From contig OY759724.1 in NCBI GenBank assembly GCA_963662715.1, positions 900,001 to 932,000 on the forward strand: a DNA stretch of 32,000 nt, read 5' to 3'. Below are positions 2,906 to 5,311 of this stretch, in pieces. The notes below the pieces were generated by a model. That model saw nothing but the letters and a program-made list of their open reading frames with translations. It was not told where the DNA came from and did no database searches. The translations under genes were made by a program, and so were the position numbers. The number at the start of each line of letters is the position of its first letter. Position 1 is the first letter of the stretch. This DNA is from Candidatus Omnitrophota bacterium. Lineage in GTDB: Bacteria > Omnitrophota > Gorgyraeia > Zapsychrales > JANLHA01.

Positions 2906-5311
2906 CTACCCAACAATGTCCAAGAATTCTGCAACAATCTTAAATTCACCATCCTGGCTTTCATTTAAAATAATTTTGTCAAAAGCACTATTTAATGGCT
3001 CCAATATAATCTCTTCGTGCTTCCATTGACCATCATCACCGAATACTTTTCGACTGGAGTAACGTTTAATAGTATATCTCCCGGTATCGGGATCAGCATC
3101 CTGCCGCAGTTCAACTAATACAATTTTCCCATTCCTCGATCCAACCACATTCCCTTGAAATACACAATAAGACCCATCTTTGATTCTCGGATCCATGGAC
3201 AAACCAACTGCTTTAATAACAAACATATTGCGATTAAGTCGGCGGCCTGTATCAACCTTCATCCACCCCAAGGGGGAGACTTCCTGCCCTTCACCGAATA
3301 GTCCACAGGCTGCGGCCAAGGAATAAACTGGCAAATATTCTTTAAATCGCAAAGATTCCTCAATTTGGCTCACAACTTCCACTTTATTATCCTCAATTTG
3401 TTGAGCAACTTCGGAAAACATCAAAGAATCCTCAGGCACCATGCCTTCAATTCTTGACTTAAAAAATCGTTCTGTGTCTTTATTCATGAAATAAACATAA
3501 CACCCTTTCATCCCTCTCGATAAAAGTACGCGATAAGTATTCTTTACCAGATCCACAAACTTATCTTTGCTACGCTTTACTACTTCATCCGCAGAGTTCT
3601 CCTTTATACCTATCCACGTTTGCTTATCAAAATCATAAATAACATCTTCACCAAAAATGACCCCAACATAATCAAATTCAAAACCTTGCGCCGTATACAC
3701 ACATCCGACTTGGTCAATACCGGCCGGATCATAGGCCCATAAAGAAGCCTTGGGAATACCTGGAGCCAATTTTCTGGCATCCGGCTTCGCATCCCATGGA
3801 CGCACATAATCCCCGATCACAACATCATCTATAAGCGTCCCGTCCTGCCTGGGATTAGACCATTTCCAACAAAATCCAGCAGTTACCCGTCCTGTATGCC
3901 CCTCTTGCACCTTATTACGGATGGCAGTTTCTAATGTCTCGGGGGAAGAAAAGATTTTAAAATCAAACTCCTCATGCTGATCCCAGATAACATTAGCTGT
4001 TCTTTTTATACCCAGAGTATTATTGATCCAATTTACAAAAGCTTCGGAACCATTACACCTAAATTGAGCGTCTAACTCATATTCAACAACATTCGCTTTC
4101 TTCTCAAGAGCATATTGCTTAATATATTCTGTTGAACCAACCTCATTAGGTCTTACAACCTGATTGTCATCTATAAAAAATACAGAAACTTTAGACGCAT
4201 TCATAATCTCTTCGATTTGGCTTAAAGAAGACCTATTTTCTTTTTTTGTAAATCGGCTATTGCTGGTCGTCCGGATTCTATGTGCTTCATCAGCAATCAG
4301 CACGTCAACGGTATTATTGTCTGCATTCATGTAGCTATTAAAGTATTTGAATTGGACTGCTCCCCTTGTCCCAATAATCTTCCTGAGCGTTTCTGTAAAA
4401 GCCTTAGATCCCGTTGCATAATGGGCGTTATATCCCTTTAAAAGCAAATCAGCCATTAAGTTTATTGCAATAACAGATTTACCTGTTCCAGGGCCCCCCT
4501 TAATAATGATGGCCGCTTTCTTTTTGTCATGGAAGCCTTTGCGGGCAAAAGTTAGGACCGTATCGTAAACAATCAATTGTTCATCTAAGAGGACATATTC
4601 CTTCTTGTTTTTTATGATGTTGCCAACGTGATCCATCAGCTTCTTAGAAGGACGATACCTGCTCTTTTCAACCTTATTTAAAACATCAATGCCTTGTCCA
4701 CTCTTAAGCCTCATCTTCAAATAATCGATCATTCTGTCAACATCATCTTCCGTGAACAAAGGAAATCGCTCAAGGCTTGGAGTAAATTTATCGCTAAAAA
4801 TAACATCCTGCTCATCATAAGGATAATTGTGCAAATAAGTGCAGGCATTAAGATTGACGGGATTAGGGCCATCATAAAATGCTGTGTGCGTGTCTTGGAG
4901 ATACAATTTGTATTGACCTACCTGCACGGAAGGATGCAAGACATCTCTTTTCCTTCCATTTAGCCATGTTGTGACTTCATTGTCACCATCTGAGGCTTCA
5001 CACTTTTCCCATTGCTTGAGCTCGATAATAACAGCATTGTCTTGGCGTTCCGTATCTTGGCCACAAATCATACAGTCCAGTCGTCTGGATGTCATCGGTA
5101 ATTGATATTCTAATATGACGCCATGATCTAACAATTGAGCATGTTCAAAGACTTGAGAAATTGAGCGGAGAGAATTTCGCCAGGAGTTAACCTCTCCTGG
5201 CGAAGGATTAAATCTGTAGTAGAGGAAAAAGGCTTGCTTTAATTTTTCGGCGATTTGGTTTTGGACAGTATCTTCTATAAATTGTTTGGATGTTCCTGCG
5301 TATAATCTCAT
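2906..5311 (-). CDS. DUF2075-family protein: N-terminal PD-(D/E)xK-like module, P-loop SF1-like helicase/ATPase core and C-terminal UmuD/LexA-like S24 peptidase domain
   Basis: 801 aa. The N-terminus MRLYAGTSKQFIEDTV...ILEYQLPMTSRRLDCMICG...VIIELKQW is the characteristic DUF2075 start with a D...ELK nuclease-like motif. It has Walker A IIKGGPGTGKSV, Walker B VLIADEAHRI and a C-terminal helicase motif YTAQGFEFDYVGVI. The last ~142 aa align to UmuD (details in findings). The start overlaps the mazG-like stop (ATGA). Confidence 0.85.
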   Translation of the reverse strand: MRLYAGTSKQFIEDTVQNQIAEKLKQAFFLYYRFNPSPGEVNSWRNSLRSISQVFEHAQLLDHGVILEYQLPMTSRRLDCMICGQDTERQDNAVIIELKQWEKCEASDGDNEVTTWLNGRKRDVLHPSVQVGQYKLYLQDTHTAFYDGPNPVNLNACTYLHNYPYDEQDVIFSDKFTPSLERFPLFTEDDVDRMIDYLKMRLKSGQGIDVLNKVEKSRYRPSKKLMDHVGNIIKNKKEYVLLDEQLIVYDTVLTFARKGFHDKKKAAIIIKGGPGTGKSVIAINLMADLLLKGYNAHYATGSKAFTETLRKIIGTRGAVQFKYFNSYMNADNNTVDVLIADEAHRIRTTSNSRFTKKENRSSLSQIEEIMNASKVSVFFIDDNQVVRPNEVGSTEYIKQYALEKKANVVEYELDAQFRCNGSEAFVNWINNTLGIKRTANVIWDQHEEFDFKIFSSPETLETAIRNKVQEGHTGRVTAGFCWKWSNPRQDGTLIDDVVIGDYVRPWDAKPDARKLAPGIPKASLWAYDPAGIDQVGCVYTAQGFEFDYVGVIFGEDVIYDFDKQTWIGIKENSADEVVKRSKDKFVDLVKNTYRVLLSRGMKGCYVYFMNKDTERFFKSRIEGMVPEDSLMFSEVAQQIEDNKVEVVSQIEESLRFKEYLPVYSLAAACGLFGEGQEVSPLGWMKVDTGRRLNRNMFVIKAVGLSMDPRIKDGSYCVFQGNVVGSRNGKIVLVELRQDADPDTGRYTIKRYSSRKVFGDDGQWKHEEIILEPLNSAFDKIILNESQDGEFKIVAEFLDIVG

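Follow-up and report, generated by a model that had tools for sequence, protein, structure and literature searches.

A LexA/UmuD-type S24 tail on a DUF2075 nuclease-helicase and on restriction enzymes: a candidate built-in damage switch

How do DNA-cutting immune enzymes spare the chromosome of their own cell during repair and recombination? The question is raised by a gene of Candidatus Omnitrophota bacterium (assembly GCA_963662715.1, contig OY759724.1) that lies in a stretch of 32,000 nucleotides (nt) covering positions 900,001 to 932,000 of the forward strand; this whole stretch is referred to below as the window. The gene encodes a DUF2075 (Schlafen group 3, SLFN-g3) helicase with a putative nuclease domain, and the protein ends in a tail of the kind found in the S24 family, to which LexA, UmuD and the lambda cI repressor belong. 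Its layout, in window positions and amino acids (aa), is as follows:

2906..5311, (-) strand: whole gene, DUF2075/SLFN-g3 nuclease-helicase with C-terminal S24 tail; uninterrupted open reading frame (ORF), 801 aa
4607..5311, (-) strand: putative PD-(D/E)xK-type nuclease domain, N-terminal, aa 1 to 235; from a motif only
5108-5110, 5075-5077, 5021-5023 and 5015-5017, (-) strand: codons of the N-terminal motif residues E68, D79, E97 and K99, in that order
3488..4519, (-) strand: superfamily 1 (SF1)-type helicase/ATPase core, aa 265 to 608; from Pfam PF09848, with Walker A GPGTGKS at 273 to 279 and DEAH at 341 to 344
3362..3436, (-) strand: unconserved linker between helicase and S24 tail, aa 626 to 650; from column identity and predicted model confidence
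3290..3334, (-) strand: cleavage-site region LPVYSLAAACGLFGE, aa 660 to 674; from the family alignment, the LexA alignment and PHROG_4
Codons 3307-3302, (-) strand: putative scissile bond Cys669-Gly670
2909..3241, (-) strand: S24 catalytic/dimerisation core, aa 691 to 801; from PF00717, AlphaFold2 with Foldseek, and the dyad
3197-3199 and 3065-3067, (-) strand: codons of Ser705 and Lys749, respectively

An S24 domain at the end of a DUF2075 protein

Judged by profile comparison and structure prediction, the C-terminal tail is a genuine S24 (LexA/UmuD/cI) domain with a predicted intact catalytic dyad. A first-pass annotation, made from the sequence alone, had proposed such a domain at 2909-3334 with a cleavage dipeptide at codons 3307-3302, and both its coordinates and the tail residues that it quoted are exact: aa 660 to 801 (window 2909-3334) read LPVYSLAAACGLFGE...GLSM...TIKRY...LEPLN...VAEFLDIVG. 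The Pfam Peptidase_S24 profile (PF00717) matched aa 691 to 794 (E = 9e-7; 29.0 bits, above the gathering threshold of 23.3), and the PHROG_4 “transcriptional repressor” profile matched aa 657 to 794, a span that includes the cleavage-site region (E = 4e-8). When an alignment of 38 tail sequences was compared by hhalign with Escherichia coli LexA and UmuD, it matched LexA over residues 73 to 181 (probability 94%, E = 1.3e-7) and UmuD with a probability of 74% (E = 2.8e-5); the LexA reference sequence agrees with a PDB alignment over residues ~111 to 187.

Structure prediction gave the same answer. An AlphaFold2 model of aa 625 to 801 had a mean predicted local distance difference test score (pLDDT) of 88.6 and a predicted template modeling score (pTM) of 0.81, and the C-terminal domains of LexA and of lambda cI, together with UmuD/UmuD′, accounted for all of its top 36 Foldseek matches in the PDB (probability 1.00, E from 5e-6 to 1e-3). 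Type I signal peptidases, which form the related family S26, ranked next, and the fold matches included the RecA complexes 8trg, 8gms, 8gmu and 8gmt. Sequence similarity to solved S24 structures is marginal: phmmer of the tail against all PDB chains returned no match, and a profile of the tail family returned nothing at E ≤ 0.001 against the same chains, with LexA, cI and UmuD appearing only at E ≥ 0.01. All marginal profile matches down to E ~2 were LexA, cI, UmuD or signal peptidase. The link to S24 needed the Pfam, PHROG and hhalign profiles together with structure prediction.

The proposed Ser/Lys dyad survives proper alignment, with hhalign pairing Ser705 with LexA S119 and UmuD S60, and Lys749 with LexA K156 and UmuD K97. 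In an alignment of the window protein with 120 homologues, both residues are kept in 120 of the 120 sequences that have a residue there, and P661, L665, F672 and W683 of the tail are invariant. The homologues represent at least 120 full-length clusters (90% identity) that are 62 to 93% identical to the window protein and, truncated ones excepted, ~790 to 820 aa long; essentially all contain both domains, and PF00717 is precomputed for nearly all of them. Loss of the tail was considered for homologues lacking a precomputed match and rejected, as P0206, P0211, P0213 and P0232 retain GxSM and the Lys. One 681-aa homologue (P0231) ends just past the cleavage-site region and is apparently truncated. 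A gene-fusion artifact or frameshift in the window is ruled out by the continuous ORF and by the presence of the architecture in >120 clusters.

The Cys669-Gly670 dipeptide sits 36 residues N-terminal of Ser705, in the position expected for a scissile bond, as had been predicted; the corresponding spacing is 36 residues in UmuD, where the dipeptide is also Cys-Gly, and 35 in LexA. The site aligns within one residue to LexA LPLVGRVAAGEPLL in hhalign. At P1, Ala occurs in 98 and Cys in 23 of the 121 aligned sequences; at P1′, 97 have Gly, 21 have Thr and 3 have Ser. The family consensus around the site is LPxYSLxAAAGxFG, followed by GxSMEP, YTIKRY and LEPLN, which distinguishes the subfamily from LexA, as do two insertions seen in hhalign, DPDTG before the Lys and ~10 residues after it. 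Other features are shared with LexA, UmuD and cI (MEROPS S24, PF00717): the fold is the same (Foldseek probability 1.0), the predicted dyad falls on LexA S119/K156, and a small residue followed by Gly precedes the Ser by ~35 to 36 residues. As in LexA and cI, the module is C-terminal to the part that it would regulate; here, however, this part is a ~670-aa ATP-dependent nuclease-helicase and not a DNA-binding domain or the arm of a polymerase subunit.

The body had been annotated as a DUF2075 nuclease-helicase, and the helicase half of that label is firm. PF09848 (DUF2075, “Schlafen group 3 helicase”) matched over its full model at aa 265 to 608 (E = 1.2e-89), and Walker A (G272-S279) and D341-E342-x-H344 are invariant in the 121 sequences. 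The nuclease half is plausible from the sequence: E68, D79 and E97-x-K99 are also invariant in the 121 sequences and fall on consecutive predicted strands (64 to 69, 78 to 85 and 91 to 99) in a model of aa 1 to 262 (pLDDT 82). Three consecutive strands are the usual placement of the PD-(D/E)xK residues. A nuclease fold, on the other hand, did not emerge; the N-terminal domain had no Pfam match, its model had no significant PDB match in Foldseek (best E 0.07, with weak matches to Card1, Shedu and BstEII), and the full-length family profile detected no solved relative of the body.

The PADLOC models for Nhi (52.7 bits) and AbiO (54.7 bits) matched only aa 236 to 471, at model positions ~175 to 375 of 470, and PDC-S41 also matched the body in part. 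Because the Nhi and AbiO models cover only the ATPase core, the window protein is assigned by these matches to a different DUF2075 clade, and “Nhi-like” describes its architecture only. With Nhi, which acts as a single-protein defense (Bari et al., 10.1101/776245), and with Nhi-like proteins and AbiO (Millman et al., 10.1101/2022.05.11.491447), it shares an N-terminal nuclease-type motif, a DUF2075 SF1 helicase and, here, a gene located in a defense island near tRNA-Met. It differs from them in being operonic with a MazG-like gene and in its S24 tail, which neither paper mentions; a role of the window protein in phage defense is suggested by genomic context.

Between body and tail, the linker (aa 626 to 650) is the least conserved stretch, with a mean column identity of 0.38 compared to ~0.8 in the body (121 sequences). 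Residues 7 to 16 of the tail model have pLDDT <50, and the linker is thus predicted to be disordered. An imperfect 23-nt direct repeat lies in the linker-coding region at 3357-3412 (TCCTCAATTTGGCTCACAACTTC / TCCTCAATTTGTTGAGCAACTTC), with copies 33 nt apart that encode the peptides EVAQQIED and EVVSQIEE, or E-V-(V/A)-(S/Q)-Q-I-E-(E/D). The repeat may have arisen by a small internal duplication, with a longer linker as the result.

Distribution of the tail

How widely DUF2075 proteins carry S24 tails was a question left by the first-pass annotation. One genome per GTDB species was scanned, the 80 best-matching loci were kept, and their C termini were inspected after BLAST searches of the ORFs. 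S24 tails were present in 13 of the 80, with 12 of the window type and 1 of another. The remaining 67 loci encode the same body (45 to 70% identical), which ends within a few residues of position 622 and has no S24 tail. Since most loci encode a tail-less body, the body works without the tail. Window-type tails occur in Bacillota, Elusimicrobia, Thermoanaerobaculia, Binatia, Verrucomicrobiae, Enterobacteriaceae, Lysobacter enzymogenes ATCC 29487, Omnitrophota and a deltaproteobacterium. The thirteenth tail, in a Saccharibacteria metagenome-assembled genome (MAG; locus L083, CAYHTW010000001.1), is a different, canonical LexA/UmuD-like one, RIPLVGSAPCGNPLL...GDSM...VTIKMY, at ~7864 to 8310 of the locus. 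BLAST with the window tail misses it. The body at this locus is 65% identical to that of the window, and the locus also encodes the MazG-like protein and a 72%-identical relative of the HNH protein described below. The L083 tail is unrelated to the window tail, and an S24 tail has therefore been gained at least twice in the clade; the tail is, as these comparisons indicate, an accessory module of this DUF2075 clade.

The identities of tail and body are decoupled. In loci L066 and L082, the body is 36 to 40% and the tail 54% identical to the window protein, and in P0244, P0247 and P0248 the corresponding values are 31 to 39% over the N-terminal domain and 54 to 57% in the tail, so that the tail appears not to track the phylogeny of the body. 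Tails were found in 0 of 10 archaeal and 13 of 70 bacterial loci (Fisher p = 0.20, not significant); the archaeal absence fits a RecA-linked signal, without significance. Plasmid records with relatives number 106, and the tail is covered in one of them only (Halomonas sp. PA16-9); a homologue in this strain lies at ~1,652,241 to 1,654,627 of NZ_CP040452. Relatives in phage records are all tail-less.

Two further features of the orthologues were observed. In a Verrucomicrobiae MAG (L046, 7861-8392), tail and helicase body are in different reading frames, with an out-of-frame extension of 38 aa; this locus, the only one with a frameshifted tail, represents an assembly error or a frameshifted pseudogene. 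Many tail-less orthologues (L010, L011, L026, L027, L029, L063, L065, L069, L070, L072, L073, L076, L077 and L086) end in a shared short peptide, ~[V/A]-A-E-x(4-5)-Y-(G), 10 to 30 residues past the helicase. This peptide could act as a short linear motif for interactions in the position that the S24 tail takes elsewhere.

The same tail subfamily occurs well beyond DUF2075 proteins. A tail-only search of a word-indexed protein database missed all full-length homologues, which a full-length query recovered. The subfamily was collected by an exhaustive HMMER search of 1.84 billion representatives with aa 655 to 801 as query (E ≤ 1e-10). It comprises 903 clusters at 50% identity. In nearly all of the best 150 of these 903, the module forms the extreme C terminus of the protein; the proteins are 170 to 1969 aa long. 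The partners identified by Pfam scans are DUF2075; ResIII, T1RH-like_C and T1R_D3 (HsdR); Type_ISP_C; Methylase_S (HsdS, P0283); Eco57I, MmeI_Mtase and MmeI_TRD; RE_AlwI; RE_endonuc (Type III Res); Mrr_cat and DpnI_C; SNF2 and UvrD_C; ~1900-aa proteins with DEAD, Helicase_C, MZB and REase domains (DruE/DrmA-like); GIY-YIG, HNH_4, AlbA_2 and a TnsA-like nuclease; and ordinary HTH_3 repressors. Restriction enzymes of Types I, ISP, IIG/L, IIS, III and IV and DruE-like helicases thus end in the same tail subfamily, and these architectures mark the S24 module as a promiscuous C-terminal add-on of DNA-restriction and defense enzymes. A motif scan of 149 divergent representatives found G-x-S-M and the Lys motif in nearly all, and A-G or C-G at the site in ~102 of the 149.

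Some individual members deserve description. Two metagenomic proteins, P0270 (1878 aa) and P0377 (1969 aa), combine DEAD, Helicase_C and MZB (DUF1998) domains with the S24 tail, and P0270 also contains REase_MTES_1575. In the MmeI-like Type IIL enzyme P0374, the S24 module is internal, at 1165 to 1311 of 1490. A stand-alone 266-aa member is encoded on Bryobacteraceae/Acidobacteria contigs (L005 to L007; gene 6001-6801 of L005); its N-terminal domain has no Pfam match, and related members match PF11236/DUF3037. The gene overlaps by 4 nt the start of a gene for a MutY-like glycosylase (HhH-GPD and NUDIX_4), which suggests that this form is a damage-responsive regulator of base-excision repair.

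Possible consequences of tail cleavage

What would such a tail do to a nuclease-helicase? As a joint reading, we put forward, tentatively, that it is an accessory S24 autopeptidase whose self-cleavage at Cys669-Gly670, triggered by the filaments that RecA forms on single-stranded DNA (ssDNA; RecA*), turns the enzyme down. The defense-island DUF2075 (Schlafen group 3, Nhi-like) nuclease-helicase would operate together with the MazG-like pyrophosphohydrolase and carry the S24 tail on its flexible linker. Upon a co-protease signal, most likely RecA-ssDNA filaments, the tail would cleave itself as LexA, UmuD and cI do. The products would be a body of 669 aa, with ...SLAAAC-COOH as its new C-terminal end, and an S24 fragment of 132 aa (~15 kDa). 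The enzyme could then be turned down by either of two routes: an S24-mediated dimer needed for double-strand cutting would be lost, or an Ala-rich C-terminal degron would be exposed to ClpXP-type proteases, as in the N-terminal fragments of LexA and IrvR. The tail would in this way act as built-in restriction alleviation that spares a host chromosome with ssDNA gaps, stalled forks or recombination intermediates.

Switch-off is slightly favored over switch-on for several reasons. The same tail is found on classical restriction enzymes, whose documented damage response is proteolytic alleviation and which must act before RecA* exists; all characterized S24 proteins but UmuD are, to our knowledge, inactivated by cleavage, often with a contribution from exposed degrons (PMC7101444); S24 cleavage exposes C-degrons, and the new end here would be ...L-x-A-A-[A/C]; and S24 domains dimerize, and double-strand breakage by several of these nucleases requires two active sites. 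The L-x-A-A-[A/C] before the scissile bond resembles the ...VAA of LexA and also the ...LAA of ssrA.

Two known systems illustrate the proposed routes. Translocating restriction enzymes are switched off proteolytically after DNA damage in ClpXP-dependent restriction alleviation (PMC12707154), and the proposed logic is the same as for EcoKI HsdR, namely, proteolytic switch-off of a DNA-translocating nuclease at times of danger to the host chromosome. The comparison is one of mode of action and not of membership: the window protein would work like that system, and tails of its subfamily also occur in proteins of the HsdR, HsdS, Type ISP and Type III Res types. For EcoKI, an external protease recognizes the DNA-stalled enzyme, whereas here the sensor-protease would be built in and RecA*-responsive. 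In the IrvR/HdiR-type regulators, S24 autocleavage exposes C-degrons, and ClpXP degrades an N-terminal fragment that stays functional unless degraded (PMC7101444). An Ala-rich pre-scissile sequence would become the C-degron of the N-fragment in both cases; those regulators are transcription repressors, and a ...LAAAC-COOH or ...AAA-COOH degron in the window protein is posited by analogy with them.

Several points weigh against switch-off by RecA*-triggered cleavage. hhalign sets the LexA Ala84-Gly85 bond one residue off Cys669-Gly670, and the AlphaFold2 model makes residues 665 to 674, which include the dipeptide, a confident helix, where LexA has strand-loop; because these residues are modeled as helical, the model gives no clear indication that the tail is competent for cleavage. 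At P1′, Thr or Ser takes the place of Gly in about 20% of the family. Self-cleavage, its dependence on RecA and the direction of its effect are inferred. For an enzyme believed to target replication intermediates, a RecA*-responsive off-switch is a liability, since phages that make RecA* during replication could exploit it. The HsdS fusion (P0283) would lose methylation too, a misfit with simple restriction alleviation, and tail-less bodies are evidently tolerated. Some S24 proteins, such as IrvR, cleave without RecA (PMC7101444). Last, full-length staphylococcal Nhi is nearly nuclease-dead in vitro, its truncated form is active, and its authors raise truncation as a possible part of the mechanism (10.1101/776245).

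The Nhi result therefore favors the converse, an activating cleavage, in which the tail would keep the enzyme latent until RecA* arising from intermediates of phage replication or recombination, or during prophage induction, led to release of the active 669-aa body, in parallel with the conversion of UmuD to UmuD′. The intact dyad and the UmuD-like Cys-Gly at UmuD-like spacing agree with this view, as does UmuD itself, an established precedent for activating S24 cleavage, and tail-less orthologues show that a free body is viable and presumably active. An analogy, and no more than that, can be drawn with human SLFN11, which shares the helicase domain family and acts on cells under replication stress. 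We nevertheless regard activation as rather unlikely. Comparative evidence lowers it, with 67 of 80 bodies tail-less and the tail also present on classical restriction enzymes, which must act on incoming DNA before RecA* is formed and whose known damage response is inactivation (PMC12707154). It would also be costly if several DNA-cutting enzymes were switched on in every ultraviolet-damaged cell, and nothing points to the tail touching or restraining the body; the linker is unconserved and predicted to be disordered. The precedent of UmuD, moreover, stands alone among the characterized S24 fusions known to us, all others being inactivated by cleavage.

A tail that cleaves itself independently of RecA, as a turnover timer or in response to another stress signal, and so sets the half-life or dose of the enzyme, seems improbable to us. 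Streptococcus mutans IrvR provides a model: its autocleavage is constitutive and needs no RecA, and an exposed C-degron then leads to its degradation (PMC7101444). The trigger could indeed differ here, for the cleavage-site region is unlike that of LexA (invariant P661, L665, F672 and W683; predicted helix), and RecA-contact residues could not be mapped on the tail. The subfamily, however, includes ordinary helix-turn-helix S24 repressors, and the gene for its stand-alone form shows translational coupling to that of a MutY-like repair glycosylase, a sign of a DNA-damage context; the lack of the tail in all 10 archaeal orthologues, although not significant, leans the same way.

The least probable reading, a non-cleaving tail that serves as a dimerization handle or as a docking module steering the nuclease-helicase to RecA-coated ssDNA, draws on the dimerization of LexA, cI and UmuD′ C-terminal domains and their binding in the RecA filament groove (8trg, 8gms, 8gmu and 8gmt), on the members without Gly at P1′, on the helical model of the site and on the function of Nhi as a dimer (10.1101/776245), but leaves the invariance of Ser705 and Lys749, the persistence of their motifs in nearly all divergent representatives and the A/C-G dipeptide in ~80% of sequences hard to explain without catalysis.

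Genomic setting and implications

The DUF2075-S24 gene lies in a low-GC stretch (36 to 43% from position 1 to ~7000) that gives way to a flank of roughly 48% GC past ~7000, near a tRNA-Met gene at 6792-6868. The neighboring island genes are all on the same strand:

5308..5655, (-) strand: MazG-like nucleotide pyrophosphohydrolase, 115 aa (PF12643, E = 4e-19); 4-nt overlap between its stop and the DUF2075 start
2196..2903, (-) strand: 235-aa protein with C-terminal HNH nuclease motif; starts 2 nt past the DUF2075-S24 stop, optional third gene
1294-2097, (-) strand: dCTP-deaminase-like protein (PF22769, TIGR02274-like)
844-1293, (-) strand: NUDIX protein; matches the PADLOC candidate system PDC-S07

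This DUF2075 clade has the MazG-like gene as its conserved operon partner: of 80 related species-level loci, 36 have it directly upstream and another 9 have it downstream, irrespective of the tail, and the stop and start codons of the pair usually overlap. No description of a two-gene module of MazG-like and DUF2075 proteins was found, and PADLOC has no model for the MazG-like protein. The 235-aa protein matched Pfam HNH/HNH_5 weakly and PHROG HNH families down to E = 3.6e-10; its gene adjoins only close relatives (L001 to L003) and the Saccharibacteria locus L083. Its N-terminal ~165 aa had no family match. A stretch of this protein, SQRSNAPYKDKIHENGITIEYEGHD, may, judged by eye, resemble the SRA/YDG-type modified-base readers of Type IV HNH enzymes. 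The trio of MazG-like, DUF2075-S24 and HNH genes is kept in relatives with 93 and 70% identity, where it lies among genes for an integrase, a type IV secretion system, AbiEii, HipA, Fic and RloB/AAA_21; a 62%-identical relative retains the MazG-like partner only.

The island thus encodes three nucleotide-pool enzymes, namely, the MazG-like, dCTP-deaminase-like and NUDIX proteins, and the dCTP-deaminase-like protein has a hydrophobic C-terminal extension that, by eye, possibly spans the membrane. No att-type direct repeat of the tRNA-Met end was found within 1-7200, and the island probably extends past the left edge of the window.

The first-pass annotation had further known of no description of such a DNA-damage-licensed effector among DUF2075 proteins. 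No paper describing S24-tailed DUF2075 proteins or restriction enzymes was found in the literature searched, with most subscription journals outside its scope, and the words “LexA” and “peptidase” are both absent from a 2025 review of restriction-modification biology that runs to 270,000 characters. The architecture as such is less new, as it is present in at least 120 clusters and already labeled in databases; some homologues bear the IMG name [quoted passage not shown]. A Druantia III preprint, considered as a precedent for S24 fusions, was set aside, since it concerns LexA inhibitors and not S24 fusions. A known switch is here joined to known effectors, and what is of interest is mainly how general the fusion is.

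The recurrence of the tail on restriction enzymes suggests an undescribed coupling of DNA-cutting immune enzymes to a DNA-damage signal. That a single S24 subfamily is a mobile C-terminal “SOS plug-in”, conferring RecA-filament-dependent self-cleavage on DNA-targeting immune enzymes of many types, is in our view quite possible, if somewhat short of an even chance. If it is true, then DUF2075 proteins, Type I, ISP, IIG/L, IIS, III and IV enzymes and DruE-like helicases would be under direct post-translational control by DNA damage, and a general, self-contained form of restriction alleviation (or, alternatively, of damage licensing), so far undescribed, would exist. The one well-understood answer to the question posed by these enzymes is ClpXP degradation of Type I HsdR, for which an external protease is needed. 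A protease-sensor borne by the enzyme itself would be a simple and portable solution and would explain why the tail has been grafted on no fewer than ten enzyme architectures. In engineering, the module could moreover be of use as a compact damage-responsive protein switch. If cleavage activates instead, the window protein would represent a bacterial counterpart of damage-triggered Schlafen action. In either direction, the SOS signal would be linked to innate immunity at the level of protein and not through transcription.

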